From positions 64,001 to 128,000 of IMG/VR virus record IMGVR_UViG_3300028549_000365: DNA of 64,000 nt. One strand, 5' to 3'. Positions 6,147 through 31,862 of the stretch are shown in pieces; positions within the stretch are counted from its first letter, which is position 1; each line of letters opens with the position of its first letter. Under the pieces are notes generated by a model. It was given only the letters and a program-made list of their open reading frames with translations. It searched no databases and was not told the DNA's origin. Source of the DNA: a virus. Lineage: Duplodnaviria > Caudoviricetes. The position numbers and the translations under genes were made by a program.

Positions 6147-8483
6147 ATGTATACAATTGATAATTATATAAAAGATACATATTCATTAACCAATAGTTTG
6201 GTTATTAAAATGTCCGATGTTGCAATTACTGTTAACAAAGGAATTTATATTGTTCATGGAATAAAACCATCTGAAAATAAAAGTCAGTGGAAATACTATA
6301 TGAACCTAGCTGGTGAAAAACATTTCACCAACAATGACGTTATGATTACGTTACTAGAGACAGGTAAACAAGAATATCTTTCTAAAGAATTGTTAGAGAA
6401 TAATCAATATACTAAGTTTGAATTAAATAAATACAGTTCATACTATAAAGAATTGATAACTAACTTTCCTAATGATATTGATTATATAAAAGGTTGTATA
6501 AACCCTGTTGATATAGATAAAGCTATAGACGCTAGAGACGGTAGCATTATGGCTTATAGTGAACAGTATATAGGGTATCAAGAGTTATCTATAATAAGAG
6601 AGCTAGAAATAAAGATACAAAGTATGTTAGCAAGATGGCATATTAAAGAGTATTGTATAACTGATGAATTATATCTTTCTAGTTTAATAGGTATAATGTA
6701 TACAATAATACCTAGTATGCTATTAAACTTAGCGTTAGAAAGAGTTAACACTAATGAGGTTAATTCATTTCACATGGAACATTTTTTCAGAAGTAGACTT
6801 AATTTATGGGACAATATACAAAGTTTAAATAACGAAAGTAAGATGTGGTTGTATAATAACTTGAATTACTTACTTAAGTATCAAGGTAGAAACGAAACTC
6901 TAGATAGCATAGCCTATAATGTATTTGAAAAGAATAACTTAGGTTTAGGAACATATACACTTTATAATACGTTACCTACATTAAAAGACGACCCTAAACT
7001 TAATGAAGCTGTTTATAACGAATCAGAATCTATATTCATACTAGAAAAGTTAAACAACAAATACAGTACAGACGTAAGTGATAATAGTGATGTTGAGACT
7101 ATATTAGATATGGAACTATATACCGATCTAGATTCTGACAACAGCACACCATCTACAGCTTTGGAGACAATAACTAAACATGTTACCAATAAACTTAAAT
7201 CAAGAACTAGTATAGAACAGAATACTAAAATATTAGATATATCAACTGTAAAATTGTTTAAACTATATGGTAATGACCCGCTTATAACAGTTCTAGACAA
7301 TTGGTTGTATAATAGTTGCAATGGTATATATGTAGCGAAAAAGATATTCATAGATCCTAATAATAAGATTAAATATTTTATATCACCTTTGGAAGGATTA
7401 TACATTTTCTATTATATGCTTATAGAACTACTAGATGCTGAAGATACGCCAATAAACACTATTAGTTATTCTAATTGTATAAATAATAATATTACTAAAG
7501 AATACTTAAGTAATAACTTGTTTAACTTAGAGTACACTGAACCAATTATAGATGAAATACTTAGATACACTACTAGTGAAGTATCTACAATTGTTGACAC
7601 TAAAAGCTTTACTTCTTATTTATCTAGCATTAAACTTTTGTATAGTAATATATGGGTAATGGATAGTAATGTGAACAATAGTACAATAAGTGCTAATATT
7701 AAACATATTGTTAACAGAATATACAAATCTGGTACACATATAGTTAATAATGATGTACCTATAACTATGAAAGATTTATTAGCTAAATCTAGTATACATA
7801 TTAATATTAATGACAGTTATAATAAACTTAATACGATTACTGAAATATTTAAGTTATTCACTGGTTTAGAGATAAATGAATATACGGCTATAAATGATAA
7901 CCTTAAAGAGATGTCAATATTACTTAATAAACTCACAAGTTATACAACACAAGTTATAAAGAACATTGATGATAATAAAGTGTTATATACACCATATACA
8001 TCTATAACTGCACTGCATGGTAGAGTCGGTGTTATAACAGTTACATCAGCCAGTATAGTTTTTCCATTAGAAAACGTAGGTAATAGGTTAATATGTAATG
8101 GTAATGATTATATAGAGGATCTAAGTATAACATCTTTAAGTTATCAACCTGTTTTTTATATTGATAAACTTATTGGAGGTATAGCGATAGGTCATCAACC
8201 TCAATATAGCGATAGTATAGAGTTATCTACAGTTACTGAAATGTACAGTGAGATAATGTTACCTTATACCAGTTTCATGGGAATGGGAGTTAAGGCTATT
8301 GTAGAAAGTGACGGTATAGAAGATATAGGTTCTGACATACCTTCATATACCCAGTTAACACTACTAGAAATAGAAGAAGACGATGAAGGTGTTGACGTAG
8401 TTATTTATAACACGGAACCAACGCAAGAAGACGGTTATTTTGTTACCGCGCAACCTAATCTAATAGTAGAATTTGAAGACTAA
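6147..8483 (+). CDS. Virion structural protein (phiKZ gp128-like)
   Basis: WKYYMNLAGEKH motif and position divergent from the portal. Confidence 0.6.
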   Translation: MYTIDNYIKDTYSLTNSLVIKMSDVAITVNKGIYIVHGIKPSENKSQWKYYMNLAGEKHFTNNDVMITLLETGKQEYLSKELLENNQYTKFELNKYSSYYKELITNFPNDIDYIKGCINPVDIDKAIDARDGSIMAYSEQYIGYQELSIIRELEIKIQSMLARWHIKEYCITDELYLSSLIGIMYTIIPSMLLNLALERVNTNEVNSFHMEHFFRSRLNLWDNIQSLNNESKMWLYNNLNYLLKYQGRNETLDSIAYNVFEKNNLGLGTYTLYNTLPTLKDDPKLNEAVYNESESIFILEKLNNKYSTDVSDNSDVETILDMELYTDLDSDNSTPSTALETITKHVTNKLKSRTSIEQNTKILDISTVKLFKLYGNDPLITVLDNWLYNSCNGIYVAKKIFIDPNNKIKYFISPLEGLYIFYYMLIELLDAEDTPINTISYSNCINNNITKEYLSNNLFNLEYTEPIIDEILRYTTSEVSTIVDTKSFTSYLSSIKLLYSNIWVMDSNVNNSTISANIKHIVNRIYKSGTHIVNNDVPITMKDLLAKSSIHININDSYNKLNTITEIFKLFTGLEINEYTAINDNLKEMSILLNKLTSYTTQVIKNIDDNKVLYTPYTSITALHGRVGVITVTSASIVFPLENVGNRLICNGNDYIEDLSITSLSYQPVFYIDKLIGGIAIGHQPQYSDSIELSTVTEMYSEIMLPYTSFMGMGVKAIVESDGIEDIGSDIPSYTQLTLLEIEEDDEGVDVVIYNTEPTQEDGYFVTAQPNLIVEFED

Positions 8484-18439: not shown

Positions 18440-18472
18440 ACATAAGATATAGGGATACCCTATATCTTATGT
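18440..18472. terminator. Hairpin at a convergent junction
   Basis: acataagatataggg-ata-ccctatatcttatgt, 15-bp perfect stem. Confidence 0.7.
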
Positions 18473-21400
18473 ATATTTTTTTCTTTCTAAATTTATAGCT
18501 GGTTTAGGAATATCCGAAACAGTTCTAGTTTTAGGTTTGTTATCTACACCTGGAGCTTCATTACCAGGTATCTGTATTTCGTCTAAGTTATTAACTTTAA
18601 GACCACCACTAATATTACTATTAAGAGCGACTATATTCTCATTCATGCCTTTAAGTGCATTTAATATTTCTGTTTGAACATTTAATGTTTGTTCTGATGT
18701 TGATGAAGTCTTAGCCAAATACTCATTTGAAGCTTTAGCTTCATTTGTTTTAACAGTATCAGCTTTTGCTTTTTCTTTATCAGCTACATTACCAGAAGGT
18801 TTATTTTCTACTTTAGTTTCTTTCTTAGGAGTAACTGTAGAAGTTTTTGATTTAGCAATATCTGTTTTTAACGTAGGTTTTACTGTAGACTTATTCTCTA
18901 CTTTAGCTTCTTTCTTAGGAGTAACTGTAGAAGTTTTCTTTTCTTTAAGTTTATCTCCAACTAATTTAGGATCTTCTCCTTTAGAAATAGCTGCTGCTTT
19001 TGGATTTTTCTTAGGGTCTATGCTAGTTCCTTTTTCCTTAATCTTTTTAACGTCAGCTTTCTTAGGTTCTATTTTAGGGTTTTGTTTACCGTCAGCAACA
19101 GGCGGTGTTCCGTTTCTAGAACCAATAGGTTCTACGTGCCAATGTTCATTAGCTAACGGACGGTATAATTTATATTTAGCTAATAACCCAGAACTATCCG
19201 CCCAGTCCATGTCAGCCTTACCAGAAGCAGCATAATTTATATCAGCGGCTATACCGACTTCATGTTTAGATTTACCCGGAGGAGCCACCCATTTACGCGC
19301 AGCTGCTTCACTACCATATTTAATTAACGCAGCCTCCCATAAAGCTTGTTGTTTAGCGGGTTCTCTGTATCCAGAGGTAAACACTAAATCTCTATTTTTT
19401 ATAGACTTAAATTCTTTACTCATACCGGCTATATTATCTAAGAATGTTTTGTCTACACCTTGTGTCTGACCTCCAGCTATTTTTAACCCTTCAGTTTGAT
19501 TACCTTTAAATAACCCAGCTACATTACCAGCCGCTGTAGTTATCATACCTACGGTGTTTTTAACAGCACCAGAGTTCATAATGTTGTCTTTAACATTTGA
19601 TAACTTATCGGTAAAACTACTAAACCAACCACCGCTAGACTTAGGTTGCGCTTGTGGTTTAGAAGGTAGAACAGCTGATTGTTTTGTATCGACGGTTCTT
19701 CCGTTAATTAGTTTAACTGGTTTACTAACTGTAGCTTGTTCTTTAGTCTTATTCTCTATTTTAGGCTTACTATCGGTAGTGTTAGATGTAGATTTAGTAC
19801 CAGTTACTTTTTTACTAGCTACTATAGCCGATCCAGCTGTCGTACCTACTGCGGTAGTTGTTTTAGCTGGAGGTTTTACAGTCGGACTAGGTGAACTACC
19901 TAACATTTTTAAAACCGTAGCTTCTTCATCATTAATACGTTTAGCAACACCTTTTTGCACATCGACCGACGAGCTTTTAAAATGCACCCCCACATTCTTA
20001 CGTTTATAAGCATAAGTAGCCTTTATTATCTTTTCATCGTCAGCCGCAGCTGGATCCAACCCAGCCGCTTTTATACCTTCTGGTATAATTGGCCTACTGC
20101 CTCCGTATTGTACACCTATCGAGTAAGCAGTACTTTGTAATGCTTTAGATCTAGTAGGTAGATCTATTCCATATTTCTTAAGTAAAGTAACCTGTGGTTG
20201 ATAATGAGATTTAGCTATAAAAGCTTCCTGATCTTCCGCGAATTCATCTGGATAATCTTTAAATATAGCTTTCCATTTATCCCCAAACTCAGGAGTACCT
20301 GGTGTTAAGCCTTTAAAATTATTTTTAAATCTACTATTAGCTACATAGTTAGCTACAGTTTTAGTAGAAAACTGATGCGTACCGTAAGAAACTCCTCCGT
20401 GATCACCTTTTCCAGATGAAACCATACCAGCACCATTCTTCTTACCTCCAGATTCAAATAACCCAGCCACTGCACCTATACCACTACTTATTAAGTCTCT
20501 AGCTTTACCGACACCAGCACTTATATAATTACCTACATTACTTATAGCGTTAGAAGTGTTTTGTACTGCAGCTGAATTCATTATATTATCTTTAACGTTA
20601 GATAAAGCGTTACCTACATTACTAACTCCATTAGCTATACTGTCACCTATCTTACCGAAGAAACCTTTCTCTTCTTTAGGGTCTACAGTGTTTCCTTTAA
20701 CAGTTTTAGTTAATTCTTTATTCTCTTTACTAGCTACACCTTTATTTTGTAGTTCACCAGCTAATTTAGCAGCTGGTACTGGATTACCGTTTTCATCGAG
20801 CACTGGATCTTTTTCGTTAAATATATCGAATCCCAATATACCTTTAGATACAGCTGAACCAAAACTATAACCTTGTGCTATGAATTTAGTTATTGACACT
20901 ACATCATTAGCTAGTAATAGTAAACCTACTCCAGGTAATAACTTAGAAGCAATTTTAGCTATTAATCTCTTACCGACTTCACCAGTTAAACGTTTAGCTA
21001 TCTTAGTTTTAAGTTGTTTTGCGTAAGATACTACTTTATCAAATATCTCTCCTCCGCCTTTCAATACTTTAGCTCCTACTTTTTTAACGTTCTCTACTAA
21101 ATTACCTCCGGCTTTCTTAGCACTATCTAATGCGTTACCACCTACCTTTTTAACAGTGTCAATAGCTGAACTACCCCATTTCTTAAACTTATCAAACATA
21201 CCACCAGATTTAGGTGCTTCTGGAGTTGGAGTAGTTATAGCTACTGGTGTTTTACCAGCCAGTTTAGTACCTAAATTAACAGCTCCTTTAGTAGCATCTA
21301 CAGCAATACCACCAGCTTTTATACCTAGTTTAAGTACACCTGTTTTATGTGCTGCGTAAGCTGCTGCTCCGTAACCAACCATTTCACCAGTTGTAGTTGC

Positions 21401-24400
21401 TGTAGATTTCTTCTCTTCACTAGGTTTACCACCTGATATAGTATCACTACCTGAGCCACTAGTAGCTGAGTCACCACCAGAACCTTGTTGTGAAGGATGT
21501 GTTCCATTATTCTTAGCGTCATTCTCAGCTATTTCTTCTTTACTAGGAGCCATCCAACCTAATCCAGGTGCGCTACTTATAACAGATTTAGCACCCATTA
21601 TTATATTGCCACCTATATTGCTTATAAAGTTAGGTATGTTTTTAAGATATCCGAACCCTACTTTCATCCATTCAAAACCAGTTTTAAGTACATCAAATAT
21701 ACCAGTAGCAATAGGTTTAAGAAAGTTAAATACATTCTTAACAGCAGTCCATGTACCGCTTAGAAATTCTTTAACATCCGTGAATGTTATACGTAAAGCA
21801 CTCATACCAGCTGCTATCGCTAATAATATTGTTGTAGGGTTAATTAAACTTGTTTCTTTCTTTTCAGCTACAGGTTTACCATCTTTGTCTTTAGTAACTT
21901 TAGGTTTGTCTTCTTTCTTTTTAAACATGTTAGAAAACGTATCTTTGTAACGTTTTGTTCTATCACCTAGTGATTCTCCAACTACTTGTTTTTTGGAATT
22001 CTTTTTATCGGCAACAGCTTTAGCCTTAGCTTCTTTCTTAGACTTTATTTCCGTGTCTCTTACTTTCTTATCTTCTTTCTTTTTAATAGCTTTAAGTCTA
22101 GCTTCTTCTCTTTTCTCAGCAGGTGATTTACCTAGACCAAATAGACTTTTCTTATTATCTGCTTTAGCTTTATCGTTTTCTTTTACTTTATCTCTTTTTT
22201 CGTCTAATGTTTTTTGCCAAGGAAATAAACGCTTACTATCGTGCTTAGCTGCAGCTTCTTGTGACGCCGCTGTCCATCTACCTGCAAAAGGATCAAGAAA
22301 AGATCTTTTAAGTCTAGTTATACGAGAGGGTATTTTATCTATAGGGTTATGCATAAACTCAGGGGTTACCGCACCAGCTACAGCACCAGTTACCGCGGCT
22401 CCTGTATTCCATAATCCCTTAAGTCCTATACCAGCTGCGTTAAATAATCCTCCACCTATACCTTTAGCTACACTGCTAGCTATACCTGATGACTCACCTT
22501 TAGTTTTATCTTTATCATTGCTACTAGTTAACTTTTTAAGACCTACTAAACCTCTACCTGTATTAGCTACGCCTCTTCCAGCTGCAGCAATACCGCCAGT
22601 TAAACCGTCCCAAGCTAAACCAGGTACTTTTAATAACCCATCTCTAGCTCCGTGTGCTATTTTCTTATCCCATTTTCTAGTAGTAGCTAATATATTCTTA
22701 ATAGTCATCTTTTTCTTTAATCTTGAAAATAAAGAAGTGCCATTTCTTCTGAAATTAAAAGCTTTTAACCAGATATCAAAGTCAGTAACCATCTTAGTTC
22801 TAAACTCTTCACTTTTAAAGAACTCTTGTCTCATATGTTCTTCTGCTTCTAAGGATAACTCTTTTAAACCTGTCCCAGTTAGTTTACCCATTATCTCATC
22901 AGTAGCTTCTTTCTTAAGATCATCAAGTTTAGTCTTAGCTTTAAATAAAGGACTGTATTTTTGTTTAAGTTTTTCTAGAGCTCCTGTTAATCTAGATTTA
23001 ACAGAACCTGGGTCTATTTGTTTAGCTACAGCTAGCCATTTAGAAAAGTCTTTTATTTGGTCAGACTTATATTCAGGACTACTAAAGAACTCTAACTTAA
23101 GTGCTTTCTTAGTGTCTTCGTCCATATCATCATATTTACCTATAAACACTATATCTTTATACTCGTCATCCTCACCACCTAGTAGTTTAGTTTTAAGTAT
23201 ATTAAAGTTCTCTTTCATAGAGTTTTTATAATAACCTAGCTCTTGCTTAACATATTCTGTTTTTTCAGACATAAAATCTTTAGCTTTATTAAGACCCTTT
23301 TCAGCAGAACGTTTAACTTTACTAGCTACTTGTAGATTTTTATCTGTACTCATAGCTAAGTGTTGTCTAGCTAATTTAGTACCAGCTGCAAACATCCATT
23401 CGTTAAATGTTTTATACGTTGTTTGTTTCATAAAGTGTTTAACTAAAATTGCTTTAGTGTCATCGTCGTAATACCCAGCAGCTAAATCACCACTAGCCAT
23501 TAACCTTTGATACATAGGATTATTATCGAACTTACTTTTCTTAACTTTACTAGGTACTTCTTTTTCATAACGTTCTTTAAGTACTTTTAGTCTACTTCTA
23601 AGTTTATCTGCGTTAGATTTGAATTTTGGTTTTTCTTTCTTTTCACCAGCGGCTTCTGCTAAATACTTAGCCGAGAACTTAGTCGTAAATTCTTCAAATG
23701 ACATTCTGTGTGAAAATGCTTTACCCCACGCATTTCTCATAGTGACTTCTACCTCGGGAGGTAAAGAAGGTCCTTGTACTTTAGCCGTTAATGACTTAGC
23801 CTTATCTTCAGCAGCTTTTTTAGTGTCGTTTAAAACATCTTTTAAATACATACCTGTATTACTGTTTTTAGCGTCTTCTAATCTTACACCTATTTTATCT
23901 TTTATTATCTTAGCTTCATCGACAGCTTTATCACTAACAGCTTTTAGATTAGTATTCTTAGTCTTGTCACTAACTTCAGAAGCTATATCCTTAACAACAC
24001 TTGTTAATTCTGATGTATTTGTGGTAGCTACAGCGTTTAATAATGTTTCTAACTTATTATCATTAAGAACATATTCTTTACCGTGCACAACACCAGCTTC
24101 TTCATGTTTACCACCATCACCTGTATATCCACCCTTTGAAAAACCTGTACTACTTGATTTAGTAATTACGTCACCCCATTCGTCTTTTTCTTCTTTTTTA
24201 GCTTTAACCTTATTTTTTCCTAAAGCTTTATCTTTAAAAGATCTTTTATCGTTCTCTTCTTTTATTTTCTTAGCTTCGTCAAATTTTGCTTTATCTTTAG
24301 AATATTGTTCGCGAATGTACTTGTCGTCCATCTTATCACTAGCGCCTATTATAAAATTAGTATAGCCTTTTTTATTATAGCTTGTTGATAGGTTACGTTT

Positions 24401-26287
24401 ATCGAACTCAGTTACACCTAATTCTTCTCCTATAGAACCATATCCCATAGCTTCCAGTTCTTTTAATTCAGACTGTAAGCCAGGAGCTTGATCCCGCATA
24501 CTACTTAACGTATTGCCTAACGAGGTTCCAAGTTCAAGATCGTTTCTTTCTCCGTACACTAATGTTTTCTTAACACTACTAGCGAATGGTTGTTTTAGTC
24601 TATCAGGTAGATGTTGTACAAACTTATTAGACATTAACTTACGTGGATCAGAACTAAAACCAGGATTAACTACATATTTAATTAAAGCTTTTCTAACTAT
24701 CTTACTATCTGTTTCATCTAGCTCTAACCCACCGTGTTGTTTAATAGTAGACATTAATGACTCTATACTTTTTCCTGTACCCTGTTCTAATCTATGTGTT
24801 ACATTTTGTTTAATGGTTTTCTTAATAGTTTCTTTATCTTCAAACCTATCATTCTTAGTATTGTAAATAAGTTCTTTTGCGTCAACATCAGACTGGTTAA
24901 CATTACTAGCTGTAGATATCCTTAATGTCTTCATTTCAGCATATATCTTACTAAGTAACCCAGGTATAATCTTAACTATTGATGTATGCGCTCTATTATC
25001 AAAAATAGATGCGTCGTTCATATTCTTCTTTTCTATTAGAAGTTTACTTTTAGAGTTAGCGTCAAACATATCACCAAGTTCATGCATCATAGTACCTATT
25101 AGTCCATCGTGTTCTGTAGCTTTCTCTTTTAATGTACCACTTATATCTGTCATAGCTAACTTAGCGTTATATATTTTCTCTCTTAGAAAATCATTCTTTT
25201 CAGCAACTTTACCTAAAGCTGACCCAGCCTTTTCTTTAATAGTTTCCGCTAACATCATACCTAATAGTGCTGATTTAGACATTCCCATTTCAGAACCACT
25301 AGCTATCATAGCGGCCATATTTTCTGTTTCACCTAGTACTTCTAAGGTTCTATCTTTGTAGTCTTCTACTTTATCTTTAAGACGTTTCTTAAACGCCATA
25401 AGTGGGTTAGCGTCAGAATATAACATATCGTTAAATCCAGTAACTGCTCTACTCTTCATATCTTCTACTAATCTTTCAGAGTTCTTAATCTTAACAACTT
25501 CTGGTAGACCTGTGTTATTTATAATAGTTGCAAATTGATTCTTGAATGTATCAAATCCTGTTTTAGTTGCTTCTAAAAGTTCTTTATTAACGAACAATGA
25601 TTTATATTGTATCTCTAATGATTTTCTGTAATAACTATTTGTTATTTCATAATCAAATTTTCTTAGACGTTCTACGTTAGCTGACGTAGTCAAAAGTATT
25701 TCATTTTGAGTAGTAGCTCTGTTATTCTCTATTTGTTGTCTAACAGACATCTCTACAGCGGTAGCTTCCTCTCTAGCACCTAAAGCTGCTAATAACTCCG
25801 CGTTTATTTTCTCTCGTTCTAAGTCCTCTTTACTAGGACCTTTATCTTCTGTATTATTACCATCTGATAACCAATCGCTTAATTTTGCTAACACACCATT
25901 AAGTTTATCATTATTAGCAGGTAATACTTTTTGTATAGCGTCTAAAGTAGACTTACCTTGTTTCTTTATTTCTATCCCTGCGTTATAGAACTCTTCTTTA
26001 ACACTATCGTGAATGTCAGTAACTGTATCAGCTTCTTTAGATAAGCTTTCAGGTATAGACTTCTTAGCTATATCTGTGGCTGTTTTAAGTTTGTCGTCCT
26101 TAAAAGTACCAACGAAGTTACTAGCAACATCACCAGCAGATCTTGTAATAGCTTCTCTACTGTCTTTAGGTGGAGGTGGAGCCGCCATAGGGTCTCCGAA
26201 GTCCATACCACCTAGTTCGTCATCTAGGTTAAAATCCTCATCATTAAGATCTAAATCTAGATCATCTGGGTTTTTGTTTTTTGCCAT
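18467..26287 (-). CDS. Giant tape-measure-like tail protein (phiKZ gp181 position) with a lysozyme-like domain and an M15 peptidase domain
   Basis: ~2600 aa, helical and K-rich. GGYTGDGGKHEEAGVVHGKEYV tape-measure motif; FESGG...SSGKGDHGGVSYGTHQF glycosidase motif; SGYR...APPGKSKHEVGIAADI...EHWHVE M15 motif. Likely start MAKNK at 26287; the track gives 26311. Confidence 0.8.
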   Translation of the reverse strand: MAKNKNPDDLDLDLNDEDFNLDDELGGMDFGDPMAAPPPPKDSREAITRSAGDVASNFVGTFKDDKLKTATDIAKKSIPESLSKEADTVTDIHDSVKEEFYNAGIEIKKQGKSTLDAIQKVLPANNDKLNGVLAKLSDWLSDGNNTEDKGPSKEDLEREKINAELLAALGAREEATAVEMSVRQQIENNRATTQNEILLTTSANVERLRKFDYEITNSYYRKSLEIQYKSLFVNKELLEATKTGFDTFKNQFATIINNTGLPEVVKIKNSERLVEDMKSRAVTGFNDMLYSDANPLMAFKKRLKDKVEDYKDRTLEVLGETENMAAMIASGSEMGMSKSALLGMMLAETIKEKAGSALGKVAEKNDFLREKIYNAKLAMTDISGTLKEKATEHDGLIGTMMHELGDMFDANSKSKLLIEKKNMNDASIFDNRAHTSIVKIIPGLLSKIYAEMKTLRISTASNVNQSDVDAKELIYNTKNDRFEDKETIKKTIKQNVTHRLEQGTGKSIESLMSTIKQHGGLELDETDSKIVRKALIKYVVNPGFSSDPRKLMSNKFVQHLPDRLKQPFASSVKKTLVYGERNDLELGTSLGNTLSSMRDQAPGLQSELKELEAMGYGSIGEELGVTEFDKRNLSTSYNKKGYTNFIIGASDKMDDKYIREQYSKDKAKFDEAKKIKEENDKRSFKDKALGKNKVKAKKEEKDEWGDVITKSSSTGFSKGGYTGDGGKHEEAGVVHGKEYVLNDNKLETLLNAVATTNTSELTSVVKDIASEVSDKTKNTNLKAVSDKAVDEAKIIKDKIGVRLEDAKNSNTGMYLKDVLNDTKKAAEDKAKSLTAKVQGPSLPPEVEVTMRNAWGKAFSHRMSFEEFTTKFSAKYLAEAAGEKKEKPKFKSNADKLRSRLKVLKERYEKEVPSKVKKSKFDNNPMYQRLMASGDLAAGYYDDDTKAILVKHFMKQTTYKTFNEWMFAAGTKLARQHLAMSTDKNLQVASKVKRSAEKGLNKAKDFMSEKTEYVKQELGYYKNSMKENFNILKTKLLGGEDDEYKDIVFIGKYDDMDEDTKKALKLEFFSSPEYKSDQIKDFSKWLAVAKQIDPGSVKSRLTGALEKLKQKYSPLFKAKTKLDDLKKEATDEIMGKLTGTGLKELSLEAEEHMRQEFFKSEEFRTKMVTDFDIWLKAFNFRRNGTSLFSRLKKKMTIKNILATTRKWDKKIAHGARDGLLKVPGLAWDGLTGGIAAAGRGVANTGRGLVGLKKLTSSNDKDKTKGESSGIASSVAKGIGGGLFNAAGIGLKGLWNTGAAVTGAVAGAVTPEFMHNPIDKIPSRITRLKRSFLDPFAGRWTAASQEAAAKHDSKRLFPWQKTLDEKRDKVKENDKAKADNKKSLFGLGKSPAEKREEARLKAIKKKEDKKVRDTEIKSKKEAKAKAVADKKNSKKQVVGESLGDRTKRYKDTFSNMFKKKEDKPKVTKDKDGKPVAEKKETSLINPTTILLAIAAGMSALRITFTDVKEFLSGTWTAVKNVFNFLKPIATGIFDVLKTGFEWMKVGFGYLKNIPNFISNIGGNIIMGAKSVISSAPGLGWMAPSKEEIAENDAKNNGTHPSQQGSGGDSATSGSGSDTISGGKPSEEKKSTATTTGEMVGYGAAAYAAHKTGVLKLGIKAGGIAVDATKGAVNLGTKLAGKTPVAITTPTPEAPKSGGMFDKFKKWGSSAIDTVKKVGGNALDSAKKAGGNLVENVKKVGAKVLKGGGEIFDKVVSYAKQLKTKIAKRLTGEVGKRLIAKIASKLLPGVGLLLLANDVVSITKFIAQGYSFGSAVSKGILGFDIFNEKDPVLDENGNPVPAAKLAGELQNKGVASKENKELTKTVKGNTVDPKEEKGFFGKIGDSIANGVSNVGNALSNVKDNIMNSAAVQNTSNAISNVGNYISAGVGKARDLISSGIGAVAGLFESGGKKNGAGMVSSGKGDHGGVSYGTHQFSTKTVANYVANSRFKNNFKGLTPGTPEFGDKWKAIFKDYPDEFAEDQEAFIAKSHYQPQVTLLKKYGIDLPTRSKALQSTAYSIGVQYGGSRPIIPEGIKAAGLDPAAADDEKIIKATYAYKRKNVGVHFKSSSVDVQKGVAKRINDEEATVLKMLGSSPSPTVKPPAKTTTAVGTTAGSAIVASKKVTGTKSTSNTTDSKPKIENKTKEQATVSKPVKLINGRTVDTKQSAVLPSKPQAQPKSSGGWFSSFTDKLSNVKDNIMNSGAVKNTVGMITTAAGNVAGLFKGNQTEGLKIAGGQTQGVDKTFLDNIAGMSKEFKSIKNRDLVFTSGYREPAKQQALWEAALIKYGSEAAARKWVAPPGKSKHEVGIAADINYAASGKADMDWADSSGLLAKYKLYRPLANEHWHVEPIGSRNGTPPVADGKQNPKIEPKKADVKKIKEKGTSIDPKKNPKAAAISKGEDPKLVGDKLKEKKTSTVTPKKEAKVENKSTVKPTLKTDIAKSKTSTVTPKKETKVENKPSGNVADKEKAKADTVKTNEAKASNEYLAKTSSTSEQTLNVQTEILNALKGMNENIVALNSNISGGLKVNNLDEIQIPGNEAPGVDNKPKTRTVSDIPKPAINLERKKYT

Positions 26288-26337
26288 GTTCATTCCTTGA
26301 CTAAATCTCATATATAACTATAAATCAAGGAAACGCA

Positions 26338-27781
26338 ATGGAACAATACGTAATGACCCCTTTCAACATAGAACTTTTAATACTTGATAAGAGTATAGAA
26401 AAAATGTTAGGTCGTGTATACAAAACAAATATATTCGAAACACCTACACAAAATTTTGATGCAAACGGTTTATTTTCAACAGAAATATTCGGACCAATAG
26501 GGTCTGAAGATAGAAACGATAGATTTGGTTATATTGATTTAGGTATTAAAGTATTTCATCCTTTAGTGTTTGAACACATATCCACATTAAAGAGTTTTTA
26601 TAAAGATATCATAACTGGTACTAAACATGCTAAGTTTGATAATAAGCTTAATGACTTCGTACCAGCTACTATGGAAGATGGTTCAACTGGATTTGCCTTC
26701 TTTATGAAATACGTTAAAGATATAAAGTTAGAATCAACTGGTGGTGACCAAAGAGATTTTAAAATAAAGTTACTTAATCTTTATCACGATGATAATAGTT
26801 TATTAGACAAATGGTTAGTGCTACCTGCTGGGTTAAGAGATTATATTGTTAGTGAAGATGGTAAGACATCTGAAGATGAAGTTAATGATATTTATCGTAA
26901 ACTAATAACAACTACTAACTTATTGTTAAGTATTAATGTTACTCCTACTACTGAACACACTGTAGATAATATTAGGCTCAAGATACAACTATTAACAGTA
27001 GAACTATACGAACATTTTAAAGTTCTATTAGATGGTAAAAATAAGTTCATACAAGGTAAGTGGGCTAAGAGAGCTATAGTTAACGGAACTAGAAACGTTC
27101 TAACACCTGCTATTAGTAATATAACTAGAATAGACCAAACTAATATGATCACAAGCGATCATACTATATGTGGTCTTTACCAATACGTAAGAGCTATAAC
27201 ACCTATAGCTATGAATAAAATACATACTAAGTTTATAAGTAAGATTATGAATGTTACAACTAGTACAGTTATGTTAGTTAATAGTAAAACTATGAAGTCT
27301 GAACTTATGGAGATATCTGTAAAGAAAAGAGATGAGTGGTTAACTATAGAGGGTCTTGATGATGTATTTGGTAAACTAGAGCAAGAAGATATAAGATCAC
27401 TACCTATTAAATTAGAGAACAACTATTTATTTCTAGTGCACGATAAAGATGATGTAATAACAGTTATATTCAACACGGCTGATATTCCAGAAGATATGGA
27501 TAGAAGTTATATTAGACCTATAACTTATTATGAGTTACTGTATATAAGTATACATGATTGTATAGATATATACCCTGGGTTCATAACAAGATATCCTGTT
27601 GCTAACTTAGGTGGTATATATCCTTCTAAGATGTATGTAAGATGTACTGAGAACCCTAGAGTGGTAGACGTAGTTATGAACGGAACAACTACTAGAATGT
27701 ATGAATATCCTAACCTAACTGAACAATATATAAACAGTGTATCTGCGTCTCCAACACACATTCAGAAATTAGGAGCTGACT
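26338..27781 (+). CDS. Virion RNA polymerase beta-prime subunit (phiKZ gp180-like), exon 1
   Basis: GLFSTEIFG, GKWAKRAIVNGTRNVL, RYP motifs; homology ends at LGAD just inside the catalytic motif. Confidence 0.9.
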
Positions 27782-29559
27782 CAACAAAAGCCTATTAATT
27801 GATAACAATTATAGGACACATAATGCACAATATAACAAATAAAACGTTTGCTGATTTAGCAAACAAAATACATAACAATAAGTATGATTACTCAAAAGTA
27901 ATATTTACAAGTATATATAAACCTGTAGAAATAATCTGCCCGAAGCATGGTGGTTTTAACCAAACACTACGCGACCATATAATACGTAAATCTATATGTA
28001 AAGCATGTTCGACTGAACAACAAGCTGAGAGAAATAAAACACCTATAGAAATAATTAAACAAAAAATATTAGATCTAAATGATGTTTACACACCAGTTTA
28101 TGATACATATATTAACTCTTCTGTTAAAATGAAATTCATATGTCCTGTACATGGAGAATTTTATCAAACACCTAGACGATTTATATACGAGAATATTAGA
28201 TGCGGTAAATGTGGTCATTCTAGAGGAGGAGATAAAATCAGGTTAAATACATCTGTTTTTATATCTAAATCTAAAGAATACCACGGCGATAGATATGATT
28301 ATAGTAAAGTAGTATATATTAATAATAGTACACCTGTAGAAATAGTATGTAGTACACATGGTAGTTTTTTACAAACACCTCAAAACCATATGTTAGGCAG
28401 CAACTGTCACAAATGTAATAATGAAGCAACTGTACTTAGATGTAGACATACTAACACACAGTTTATATCCAAAGCTAAGTTAACACACGGTGATAAATAT
28501 AACTACGATAAGGTTGAGTATATTAATAATAAAACACCAGTAACTATAACATGTTTATTACATGGTGATTTTACGTCTAGGCCAGATAACCACATAAGTG
28601 GTAAATCAGGTTGTCCTGTATGTAATGAATCTAAAGGTGAGTTAAAAGTAAGAGAGTTCTTAATATCAAACCATATAGAATATATAAGGGAGTATAGATT
28701 TCCTAATAGTAACTATAGGTATGTCTTTTATCTACCTAAACTAAATATACTTATAGAATATGACGGAGCTTTACATTTTAAGGCTGTTGATAATTTTGGT
28801 GGTGTAGATCACCTTAATGCTCAAAAAGCCAGAGATTCACATAAGAATGATTTAGCTAAGTTACATAATGTACCGCTTATAAGATTACATTACAGATCGT
28901 ACAATGAACTAGAATCTATATTACTATTTAAACTTTCTAAATACTATAAGTACAGAGTTGGTAATAAATACTATAGAGGTCTTACTGAGTTATGTAAAGG
29001 TGAACAACTACCTGGTACAACTGTACCTAAAGATGTTAAAAAATATTTGTTATATTGTAAATAATGTACCTCAGGGTCCGCTATATAGTAATATATAGTG
29101 ATAATCTATTGAATTTGTCGGGAACACCTTAAAGCTGGTACACTACAAGTAGTTGGAAACGACTACTGAATGTTAACAACGTACCGGATGATCTTAAGTG
29201 GTCAACATCTATATCGAGAGTATAACTAGGCAGTCTTATCAACTGTTAGTAGCTACTGGTTGAGACCAGGTGTAATAGGCAACCGTGGAACCTAAGGTTC
29301 CCTTTCGCAGCGAAGATCCTAACCCGTAAGGTATGGATAACGTTCAACGACTATCCCGTAGCTGGGAGTAGCGCCAAGTGGTGGGGTAGACCCCTTAAAG
29401 ACAAAGTGGTAGATATCCTACGAGGTGATAACGTAGGATAAAGATATAGTCTCAACGTGCACGGAACAAGGCGTTCCTTAACGAAAGGTGCAGATGCGTG
29501 TCATGACGCTGGTATAACGTAACTATACAGTTACATAACGAGTTATGCTGAAGATATTG
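27782..29559 (+). mobile_element. Group I self-splicing intron (IA-like) with an endonuclease ORF in the P1 loop
   Basis: 5' exon ends in U (27781) and the intron ends in G (29559). R element gttcaacgacta at 29342-29353 and S element aagatatagtct at 29441-29452 form P7. P3 atcta/tagat, P8 atcctacg/cgtaggat, P2 ctatata-gtaa-tatatag. Excision restores GAC TTT GAT GGT GAC. Confidence 0.92.
27823..29064 (+). CDS. Intron-encoded homing endonuclease: four Cys/His zinc-binding repeats plus a Vsr/EDxHD-like PD-(D/E)xK domain, possibly inactive
   Basis: Four YDYSKV...ICPKHG.F.Q...C..C repeats; SKGE...YRYVFYLP...IEYDGALH...RDSHKN. ATG at 27823 follows an AGGA RBS; the track starts at TTG 27799. Confidence 0.85.
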   Translation: MHNITNKTFADLANKIHNNKYDYSKVIFTSIYKPVEIICPKHGGFNQTLRDHIIRKSICKACSTEQQAERNKTPIEIIKQKILDLNDVYTPVYDTYINSSVKMKFICPVHGEFYQTPRRFIYENIRCGKCGHSRGGDKIRLNTSVFISKSKEYHGDRYDYSKVVYINNSTPVEIVCSTHGSFLQTPQNHMLGSNCHKCNNEATVLRCRHTNTQFISKAKLTHGDKYNYDKVEYINNKTPVTITCLLHGDFTSRPDNHISGKSGCPVCNESKGELKVREFLISNHIEYIREYRFPNSNYRYVFYLPKLNILIEYDGALHFKAVDNFGGVDHLNAQKARDSHKNDLAKLHNVPLIRLHYRSYNELESILLFKLSKYYKYRVGNKYYRGLTELCKGEQLPGTTVPKDVKKYLLYCK

Positions 29560-29732
29560 TTGATGGTGACACGGTTTCTTTAAATATACTTTATGTAGAT
29601 GACAGTATAGAAGAAGTTGATAATATACTTAATAGTAAAGAGTTCTATATATCTCCTAGCGGAGGATTAACCTATTCTATAAACAGCGAAACACTTAACT
29701 ATGTAGTAGCTCATCTGGTTGACACACTATGA
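29560..29732 (+). CDS. Virion RNA polymerase beta-prime subunit, exon 2 (not in the ORF track)
   Basis: Reads (F)DGDTVSLNILYVDDSIEEVDNILNSKEFYISPSGGLTYSINSETLNYVVAHLVDTL-stop. Spliced CDS is 1444+173=1617 nt, 538 aa. Confidence 0.9.
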
Positions 29733-30127
29733 AAAAGATAAGAAGTGATTATGACCTTAAGGACTATTATGAAATAGATCGCTTAGGTCAAGTTTATAAA
29801 GTAACAATAGTGGATGGTAAACGTATAGAAAATAAGATGTCGCCATTTCTTACTAAAGATGGGTATCTTGAGTATGTGTTAACAACTAACAGCGGAACTA
29901 AAAAACATGTGCAAGAACAACGACTTGTAGCCATGACTTATTTACCTATACCTAAGACGAATAGACATATAGAGGTAAATCATAAAGACGGAAATAGAAC
30001 TAATAACATAGTTAGTAACCTTGAGTGGGTTACTAAATCTGAGAACATTAGACATTCATTCGATGTGCTTGGTAAGGTTGTACATAACAAAGGTAAGACT
30101 AAACAAGAAGATGGTAGTTATTCATAG
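29729..30127 (+). CDS. Free-standing HNH homing-type endonuclease
   Basis: RLVAMTYLP...EVNHKDGNRTNNIVSNLEWVTKSEN HNH motif with a NUMOD4-like N-terminus; ATGA overlap with the exon 2 stop. Confidence 0.85.
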   Translation: MKKIRSDYDLKDYYEIDRLGQVYKVTIVDGKRIENKMSPFLTKDGYLEYVLTTNSGTKKHVQEQRLVAMTYLPIPKTNRHIEVNHKDGNRTNNIVSNLEWVTKSENIRHSFDVLGKVVHNKGKTKQEDGSYS

Positions 30128-30821: not shown

Positions 30822-31862
30822 ATGTCAAAAGTTATATTCCACTGTTGTGGTGGTGCTGGTATCAATCTTAGCGATAAGGTTTTAAGAGAATTAGAAATGT
30901 TGGGTAAAGGTTTTGCTAATATTGAATATAGATATATTGATACATCTATAAATAATATAGAAAAAATTGACCACGATGAAGCTATGTTCTATTTGGTAAA
31001 AAGTAAACAACACGGGGTTGAAAAGATATCAGGTAGTGGTGGTGATAGAAGAAAGAACGCCGCGGACATAACTGAAAATATTAAAGACTATATGGACCAC
31101 TTTAAATTCCTTAAACCTACGGTTGGTGAGTTCCACGCTGTGATATTTTCTGGATCTGGTGGTTCTGGTTCTGTATTAGCACCTATGCTAATAAAAGCTC
31201 TTATGGAAAGAAATTTTCCTGTATTCGCTATTATGGTTGGTGACAGCTCTTCAGGGTTGATTAATACTAATACTATAAACAGTATAGCTAATCTTAACCA
31301 CATAGCTGTAACTATGGTTAAAAAGCCTTTAAACACTATATATGTTAACAATCAAACATTTAACAAAGGTAACATACTAAAAGCTGAACAAGAAGCTAAT
31401 AAAAGAATATTCAATAGCTTAGCTACAGTTCTGTTATTCTTATCTGGTGTTAACGGCGAACTTGATGATCAAGATATGATAAACATCATAGATCAATCTC
31501 AATATTCTACAGTTAAAATACCTGCTGGTTTATATGGTTTAACTACATTTGCTGGTCTTCCTGAGATACCTGATACTGTTATCCCTATGATAGGTAGAAC
31601 GTTAGTTAACGAAGGAGTATCACCTGATACAGGTATAACATTTGCGGCGCATCATAAAGCTGGTATAGTAACTGAAGAAAACGCTCTTAGTGTTTATGAT
31701 AAACAGTTTCCTTTACATCTTATAACTTGTGCTAACTACTTTACAGTTGAACAACAAATGCTTAAAAAGGTAGCTGCTGATTTTGAAAACATTATGAATA
31801 GTATAGCCATTAACAACATAGATGGTGTCGGTAATGTAGATGAAAACGGACTAATATTATAA
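30822..31862 (+). CDS. phuZ: PhuZ phage tubulin
   Basis: CCGGAGIN, IDTS, GSGGDR, tubulin signature variant SGSGGSGS, acidic-hydrophobic C-terminal tail DENGLIL. Confidence 0.9.
   Translation: MSKVIFHCCGGAGINLSDKVLRELEMLGKGFANIEYRYIDTSINNIEKIDHDEAMFYLVKSKQHGVEKISGSGGDRRKNAADITENIKDYMDHFKFLKPTVGEFHAVIFSGSGGSGSVLAPMLIKALMERNFPVFAIMVGDSSSGLINTNTINSIANLNHIAVTMVKKPLNTIYVNNQTFNKGNILKAEQEANKRIFNSLATVLLFLSGVNGELDDQDMINIIDQSQYSTVKIPAGLYGLTTFAGLPEIPDTVIPMIGRTLVNEGVSPDTGITFAAHHKAGIVTEENALSVYDKQFPLHLITCANYFTVEQQMLKKVAADFENIMNSIAINNIDGVGNVDENGLIL

Follow-up and report, generated by a model that had tools for sequence, protein, structure and literature searches.

In the phage genome record IMGVR_UViG_3300028549_000365 of IMG/VR, the gene for the N-terminal beta-prime subunit (beta-prime-N) of the virion RNA polymerase (vRNAP) is interrupted inside its catalytic DFDGD motif by 1778 nt that are very probably a group I intron of IA-like architecture, whose removal would leave a joined product with an intact ADFDGD. 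The locus lies in the window, the 64,000-nt stretch analysed here (positions 64,001 to 128,000 of the 222-kb record, which is estimated to be 83% complete); coordinates are those of the window unless stated otherwise. The interrupted gene has three parts:

26338–27781, plus strand: exon 1, vRNAP beta-prime N-terminal subunit (gp180 type; by phrog_2986, tblastn and alignment), ending LGAD plus one T
27782–29559, plus strand: putative group I intron, 1778 nt, from C27782 to the terminal G29559
29560–29732, plus strand: exon 2, consisting of TT, 56 codons and TGA, encoding FDGDTVSLN...LVDTL, and lacking a start codon of its own

The open reading frame (ORF) that begins at 26338 terminates ...IQKLGAD-STKAY followed by a stop, both in the ORF list and in the raw sequence. 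T27781 is the last base of exon 1, and the interruption falls after the first base of the Phe codon in DFDGD; at the other boundary, G29559 is followed by TTGATGGTGAC, and the frame downstream, which enters with TT at 29560, stays open to the TGA at 29730–29732. An earlier note on this DNA, drawn up from the sequence alone, had proposed that taking out 27782–29559 rebuilds the motif and adds a C-terminus of 57 residues. This holds: the join reads GAC T^TT GAT GGT GAC (DFDGD; carets mark splice sites), the spliced junction is GACTTTGATGGTGAC, and 26338–27781 plus 29560–29732 form a multiple of three encoding a 538-aa protein (...KLGADFDGDTVSLN...LVDTL), to which exon 2 contributes 57 residues. 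Comparison with intron-less gp180 homologues, which the note had suggested, gives end-to-end alignments that include GADFDGDT and the 57 C-terminal residues with all three proteins chosen: 201phi2-1 gp275; KTN4_220 (phiKZ gp180 type); and the homologue from Klebsiella phage Eowyn. By itself, exon 2 matches the C-terminal part of a metagenomic relative that has no intron (E 1e-21), and in two intron-less relatives, L005 and L006, ADFDGD reads unbroken. With whole-length alignment to three homologues and the separate exon 2 match, the predicted join lies far beyond chance.

The host gene, too, was identified by comparison. Exon 1 matches phrog_2986 (E 5.8e-147) and, by tblastn, 314 jumbo-phage records at 35–37% identity, in one place per record; its top annotated matches are 201phi2-1 gp275 and KTN4_220. 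Mass spectrometry has detected gp275 in virions, and the protein has been likened to phiKZ gp180. Beside the window's beta-prime-N gene, and divergent from it, lies a gene for a gp181-like tail protein (2614 aa, 18467–26311), an arrangement found in 201phi2-1/phiKZ-type phages. These matches and this synteny underlie the assignment to vRNAP beta-prime-N, which agrees with that of the earlier note. With DxDGD near its C-terminus, the predicted product is an orthologue of the virion-packaged gp180-type subunit, and a genome search found this copy alone in the 222-kb record. The DxDGD of the beta-prime double-psi barrel holds the catalytic Mg (PMC7598289). A megablast of the locus against sequenced phages gave no match, and a promoter and terminator scan of the locus returned fewer promoter-like sites than in shuffled sequences and no useful terminator.

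The ribozyme signature was judged by Rfam model RF00028, with its curated cut-off of 50 bits. In a search of 3.5 kb (the Infernal-type check that the note had proposed), positions 29058–29464 scored 50.9 bits (E 2.9e-11) over the full model, 1–253. Helices were drawn by hand from this alignment and the sequence, and their pairs were counted against a paralogous intron (L009) of the same genome:

29081–29087/29092–29098, plus strand: P2 hairpin, 7 bp with a GUAA loop, kept via double changes in the related introns L004 and L103
29104–29110/29408–29414, plus strand: P3 (RF00028 alignment and L009 pair table)
within 29104–29534, plus strand: P4, P5 with an extension of about 160 nt, and P6/P6a (RF00028 alignment and L009 pair table)
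29349–29353/29447–29451, plus strand: P7 (RF00028 alignment and L009 pair table)
29354–29367, plus strand: P7.1, UCCC/GGGA, in a 51-nt insert of the Rfam alignment
29383–29394, plus strand: P7.2, GGGG/CCCC, in the same insert
29415–29422/29432–29439, plus strand: P8 (RF00028 alignment and L009 pair table)
within the ribozyme core and periphery, 29104–29534, plus strand: P9, P9a, P9.1 and P9.2 (L009 pair table)

Every hand-drawn helix is fully paired. The core comprises P3 through P8 with the P7 pseudoknot, and the terminal G29559 stands directly before exon 2. P7.1 and P7.2 form within the 51-nt insert, and two helices in this position (between the P7 5' strand and the P3 3' strand) are a hallmark of subgroup IA. 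Their presence thus makes the intron IA-like; the finer subgroup is presumably IA2. The paralogue retains both helices; L004 retains P7.1, with one double change, and its P7.2 failed to align. Between the window core and that of the paralogue, P2, P3, P6, P7, P7.1, P7.2, P8, and P9.2 are unchanged, and 10 double (compensatory) changes preserve P6a, P9, P9a, and P9.1, with no helix among all these broken. P4 and P5 of the paralogue differ owing to a deletion, and pair in their own way. The minimum free energy z-score of the ribozyme core is −2.63. RNAalifold, run on three sequences, recovered local hairpins but not the long-range P3, P4, and P7 pairs.

The internal guide is the second line of evidence. 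The sole complement of the 5' exon end sits directly 5' of P2: GGGUC (29074–29078, extendable to 29082) pairs with GACU^C, placing a U.G wobble at the splice site, and this P1 can be extended as AGCUGACUC/GGGUCCGCU with one mismatch. Overlapping it, UACCUCAG (29067–29074) could form P10 with UUGA(U)GGUG of the 3' exon. Both elements had been read from the sequence in the earlier note, and both are present; P1 is further supported by compensatory changes in three other introns:

29067–29082, plus strand: internal guide region (P10 UACCUCAG, P1 GGGUC), with compensatory changes in L103, L004 and L009
Window intron: 5' exon end GACU^C, guide GGGUC (reference)
L103 (same site, orthologous endonuclease): 5' exon end GAUU^C, guide GGAUC; C-G to U-A at exon position −2
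L004 (same site, host gene 56% identical, ORF-less): 5' exon end GACU^U, guide AGGUC; C-G to U-A at intron position +1
L009 (DNA polymerase paralogue, same genome): 5' exon end GGAU^UA, guide UAGUCC; a different exon with a matching guide

In all four introns the guide lies immediately 5' of P2. In the window intron an endonuclease ORF (421 aa from TTG at 27799, or 413 aa from ATG at 27823) is situated between the 5' splice site and the guide, and L004 represents the same intron type without this cassette: its P1 loop is just 17 nt and holds no ORF. Since the guide lies 3' of the ORF, the roughly 1.24-kb endonuclease ORF is predicted to fill the P1 loop, as the earlier note had placed it. Upstream of the ATG lies the remainder of the loop's 5' side:

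27782–27822, plus strand: 5' part of the P1 loop, with an in-frame TAA at 27796–27798 and a Shine-Dalgarno sequence, AGGA, at 27813–27816, 6 nt before the ATG

The paralogous intron (L009/L096) lies outside the window at G000:C1:148479-148870, minus strand. It scores 72 bits with RF00028, its core is 79% identical to the window core over 486 nt, and it splits a DNA polymerase gene (phrog_3011). A 377-aa HNH/I-HmuI-like endonuclease is encoded between its 5' splice site and guide, in an ORF that reads through the guide and stops inside P2. Alignment with intron-less polymerases (WI-VTLPSYLV versus WI-ILLSSYRI) fixes the 5' splice site, the best junction being TGGAT^TATTCTG. (A 5' splice site after GGGAU was considered and rejected: the alignment puts the site after TGGAT, where the same guide pairs.)

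Related ribozyme sequences were encountered elsewhere. In runs X1, X2, X4, and X7, depth over the core region 29047–29562 exceeds that of the flanks, the assembly graph is fragmented, and the variant joints correspond to the paralogous intron. A freshwater metagenome from another study has 151-nt contigs identical to 29062–29212 and to 29301–29451, so near-identical ribozyme cores circulate beyond this phage. A 249-kb contig, IMGVR_UViG_3300045988_176405 (L015, L019, L024, L087, and L089), has at least 10 matches to a P4'-P6-J6/7-P7 pattern and appears to be an unusually intron-rich phage genome.

The protein encoded in the P1 loop belongs to a large family, and one of its residues sets it apart:

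27823–29064, plus strand: homing-endonuclease gene, 413 aa (P0001), with four DUF723 Cys/His repeats and a C-terminal Vsr-like (EDxHD-type) domain, residues 268–377
28723–28725, plus strand: GTC codon for Val301, at the family's invariant Asp; GAC is one base away

It matches DUF723 in Pfam (E 1.1e-13) and phrog_559 in PHROGs (E 1.9e-69). More than 6700 homologues are present in public data, some of them labelled very-short-patch-repair endonuclease by the source, and an alignment of 36 members shows four repeats with conserved Cys and His residues followed by the C-terminal domain. Sequence searches of the PDB, with the endonuclease and with a family profile, found no meaningful match, and a search of NCBIfam with the endonuclease found nothing. 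The AlphaFold (AF2) model has a mean predicted local distance difference test (pLDDT) score of 89.5. Foldseek with the full-length model gave weak E-values only; the Vsr-like matches came from VIA. In the model, residues 268–377 superimpose on Escherichia coli Vsr (1cw0_A; Z 11.8, root-mean-square deviation 2.6 Å, 106 residues) and equally on the catalytic domain of I-Bth0305I (3r3p_A; Z 11.8, root-mean-square deviation 2.8 Å, 94/97 residues). The modelled nuclease fold is Vsr/EDxHD-like, not HNH, which bears out the earlier note's remark that this nuclease differs in family from PhiPA3 gp210.

That note overlooked the loss of a catalytic residue. Position 301 is Asp in 106 of 106 homologues with a complete domain, and Val in the window protein. 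The orthologue in L103, at the same insertion site and 45% identical, has the Asp (YKYDIYIP, against YRYVFYLP in the window). Other conserved residues are all kept: E273, E312 (invariant in 107 of 107 sequences), D314, H318, D338, and K341. In order and spacing, E273, residue 301, H318, and D338 parallel E170, D196, H213, and D222 of I-Bth0305I, in which Asp196 (Asp51 of Vsr) is an essential Mg ligand and the D196A substitution served as the inactive mutant (PMC3239194). From motif order, spacing, and the fold match, residue 301 would be the Mg-binding Asp position. Of the residues E, D, H, and D that define the EDxHD type, the window protein therefore has Val at the first D; it is a member of the family by descent, without one of the defining catalytic residues. 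Because Val replaces an invariant metal-binding Asp, the endonuclease is probably unable to cut, the balance tilting modestly toward an inactive enzyme.

The site of insertion is often occupied in related phages, which the earlier note also overlooked. The 120 nearest homologue clusters of exon 1 were sorted by where the predicted protein ends:

63 clusters: full length, with DxDGD
29 clusters: end just after the first Asp (the window's site)
5 clusters: end one residue later (ambiguous)
13 clusters: end after DxDG
9 clusters: end after DxDGD
1 cluster: end point unclear

Thus 56 of the 120 break off inside the motif or directly behind it, at a minimum of three points. One example was taken from each truncated class, and in each an endonuclease gene directly follows the break and is itself followed by a match to RF00028:

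L103: DUF723 endonuclease; RF00028, 34.3 bits
L101: HNH endonuclease; RF00028, 42.6 bits
L102: HNH/NUMOD1 endonuclease; RF00028, 32.2 bits

Sequenced phages are mostly continuous across the motif (170 of 183 records), but Vibrio phages Yong MS31 and MS32 are not. In the cultured phage MS32 (vB_VmeM-Yong MS32; L104, MK308677.1 129263-137424), exon 1 (484 aa), a 315-aa HNH gene, and exon 2 (61 aa) are each annotated as hypothetical. The MS32 intron scores 69.9 bits with RF00028. It resembles the window intron in being a group I intron of the same gene and motif, with an endonuclease ORF directly after the 5' splice site; it differs in its splice point (GAT^TTT, one base upstream of the window's and in phase 0), in its HNH endonuclease, and in lacking blastn similarity to the window ribozyme. 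(MS31, MK308676.1, has the same unannotated interruption in the motif.) All four interrupted loci inspected, MS32 among them, contain unannotated introns. Only L103, L004, and the DNA polymerase paralogue share blastn similarity with the window ribozyme, and several intron lineages have therefore entered the motif. A search of the openly accessible literature found no paper on an intron in this motif of phage beta-prime genes.

The closest IMG/VR relative, L004 (IMGVR_UViG_3300003873_000117, 6444-7245), has the ORF-less intron at the window's site. An apparent second group I core begins about 8 nt after the first, following ATGACGGT (D-Y-D-G if translated). Exon 2 is not reached by the contig; if the second core is real, two introns share one DxDGD motif.

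Such occupancy bears on the state of the endonuclease. That 29 of the 120 clusters end at the window's very site speaks for recent mobility, and L103 has the same intron and endonuclease family there; the ORF in the window is full length with its own Shine-Dalgarno sequence and retains the six conserved residues listed above. On this evidence the enzyme might still be active and the intron home autonomously, possibly in inter-phage competition as for PhiPA3 gp210, with Val301 being either tolerated or an assembly error. This is somewhat unlikely, given an Asp without exception among the homologues and the essential role of the corresponding metal ligand in both I-Bth0305I and Vsr. Against an assembly error, a Logan contig of public run X1, an independent assembly though possibly of the same source sample, covers 26338–29110 without differences.

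If the intron's own nuclease is probably inactive, a second nuclease gene at the locus invites attention:

29729–30127, plus strand: HNH_3 endonuclease-like gene, 132 aa (Pfam HNH_3, E 5.9e-09); its ATG overlaps the beta-prime stop codon (ATGA)

Conceivably the intron is mobilised in trans, the adjoining HNH enzyme cutting co-infecting relatives near the locus and repair co-converting the intron 173 nt away. The loss of the invariant Asp from the intron's own endonuclease and the intact-looking HNH_3 ORF at the beta-prime stop codon are consistent with this, and phage T4 supplies a precedent, in which the free-standing HNH enzyme MobE serves the intron of the defunct I-TevIII (PMC2790892). Relatives argue otherwise. 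Orthologues of the HNH gene, 46–48% identical, also follow the intron-less genes of L005 (7023-7367) and L006 (6642-7001). In the closest relatives, which are 60–63% identical and intron-less, HNH is fused in frame to the beta-prime-N C-terminus via an acidic linker (P0123, P0125-P0127, P0133, P0138, and P0184; 684–705 aa). Present adjacent or fused in intron-less relatives, HNH is thus a stable feature of the locus with or without the intron. Furthermore, L005 has both the HNH gene and an uninterrupted site whose 19 bases are those of the window's spliced junction, which makes the HNH enzyme unlikely to target the insertion site. Mobilisation in trans is accordingly quite unlikely. (A variant, collaborative homing in which HNH cuts the DFDGD site itself, is disfavoured by the same observation in L005.)

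The HNH gene is, by these comparisons, a predicted conserved partner of the beta-prime gene and not an intron accessory, and its fusion suggests a nuclease domain tied to the virion polymerase. In Bacillus jumbo phages, an HD domain is fused to vRNAP beta, an arrangement that resembles the HNH fusion.

A broader picture can be sketched, unlikely as it is to hold in full. The 15 bases encoding DxDGD may be a homing hot spot across an uncultured jumbo-phage clade, entered by unrelated ribozymes at no fewer than three points; one scaffold may swap Vsr-like, HNH, or no cassettes in its P1 loop; and the intron described here may have outlived its own nuclease, perhaps persisting via the conserved HNH.

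A mechanism for splicing, and for the present mode of spread, can be proposed from the sequence. The 5' exon end GACU would pair with the guide GGGUC some 1.3 kb downstream to form P1, which would place the U.G wobble at the splice site. Cleavage after U27781, by a free guanosine occupying P7, would follow the standard group I pathway; P10 would then align the 3' exon, the terminal G29559 would enter the G site, and the exons would be ligated. The spliced mRNA would encode the 538-aa subunit, its ADFDGD intact, and unspliced RNA would yield a truncated beta-prime protein, because a stop codon lies five codons into the intron. The endonuclease gene in the P1 loop has its own ribosome-binding site. 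With its nuclease having probably lost the ability to cut, the intron is probably now inherited vertically or carried passively.

Several points weigh against this account. The RF00028 score barely exceeds the cut-off, and in a scan of the whole 64-kb window the match was lost to the fast filters. The source record is a metagenome assembly of about 13× depth, from a microbial-mat sample. No run containing this sequence is listed as RNA, and the joint 27781>29560 was found in none of the contigs of four runs; those that had been taken for RNA reach just parts of the intron core and are probably DNA, so the result is silent on expression. With regard to the nuclease, the correspondence between Val301 and Asp196 is drawn from the order and spacing of the motif and from the fold match, the PDB sequence searches having been empty; and the ORF is otherwise intact and well conserved, so the protein may have some activity or another role.

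Given the marginal Rfam score, and with splicing itself a prediction, one might instead suppose that the ribozyme no longer splices, leaving a pseudogene in a genome that is defective or wrongly assembled. This is very improbable. No core helix is disrupted, and the helices co-vary with the paralogue; the reading frame is open and conserved in both exons; the gene is the only beta-prime-N copy found in the record; and contigs from public runs cover the region without differences, save for the fragmented graph in the repeated intron core. A spliced group I intron remains the preferred reading.

The intron is a further member of a familiar class, the mobile group I introns that interrupt polymerase genes of jumbo phages at catalytic codons. 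In essential genes, the most conserved codons are where homing introns are to be expected, and the finding is unsurprising in kind. The nearest precedent is PhiPA3, in which gp210, a putative group I intron endonuclease, is an active nicking HNH enzyme that gives a competitive advantage (PMC11620839). The two systems are alike in having an intron and homing endonuclease in a phiKZ-like vRNAP gene, at conserved catalytic aspartates (PMC11620839). The earlier note had named PhiPA3 as an example of an intron in a jumbo-phage RNA polymerase gene, and correctly so, but the gene concerned is that for the beta subunit (gp211/209, the gp178 homologue), not beta-prime-N (the gp180 homologue) as in the window. 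The nucleases differ as well: nicking HNH in PhiPA3, against a Vsr-like EDxHD-type domain with DUF723 repeats and without the invariant Asp in the window.

I-Bth0305I, the EDxHD prototype, comes from Bacillus phage 0305phi8-36, where a group I intron in recA encodes it (PMC3239194), and likewise has a C-terminal Vsr-like domain with residues in the order E...D...H...D. Its N-terminal DNA-binding part is of the NUMOD/helix-turn-helix type, in contrast to the four DUF723 Cys/His repeats of the window protein; its ORF is in P5, whereas that of the window is in the P1 loop; the two proteins have no detectable sequence similarity; and the motif D is Val in the window protein. The T4 nrdB intron, with defunct I-TevIII beside the free-standing HNH gene mobE (PMC2790892), offers a third likeness, in that an apparently defunct intron endonuclease and an HNH gene adjoining the interrupted gene occur together. 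The window type of HNH gene, however, is also found beside intron-less alleles and fused to the subunit in close relatives, and a MobE-like helper role is for that reason unsupported. What is distinctive, and moderately interesting, is the combination: beta-prime in place of beta; a Vsr-like endonuclease in the P1 loop with a one-codon loss of Asp; a paralogous ribozyme that carries another endonuclease; and a site occupied in about half of the nearest relatives.

Downstream of the HNH gene, a 346-aa ORF (30822–31862) has a weak match to the Tubulin/FtsZ GTPase family (29.2 bits, under the cut-off of 33). It probably encodes a PhuZ-like phage tubulin. Such a gene fits a nucleus-forming phage, and the phage described here, a phiKZ-like jumbo phage, is probably of that type.

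Together, these results put right how an essential gene is annotated: if the splice is ignored, the virion polymerase of the phage seems to have no Mg-binding motif, and exon 2 is missed by gene calling. GenBank entries for Yong MS31 and MS32 share the error, as do about half of the metagenomic homologue clusters nearest to the window gene. Moreover, the locus provides a natural series for intron invasion, decay, and persistence in nucleus-forming phages, a group for which the use of one such endonuclease as a weapon against co-infecting phages has been demonstrated. It takes in a single site with a Vsr-like enzyme, an HNH enzyme, or no endonuclease at all; insertion points a few bases apart; and the loss, in one codon, of a catalytic Asp.

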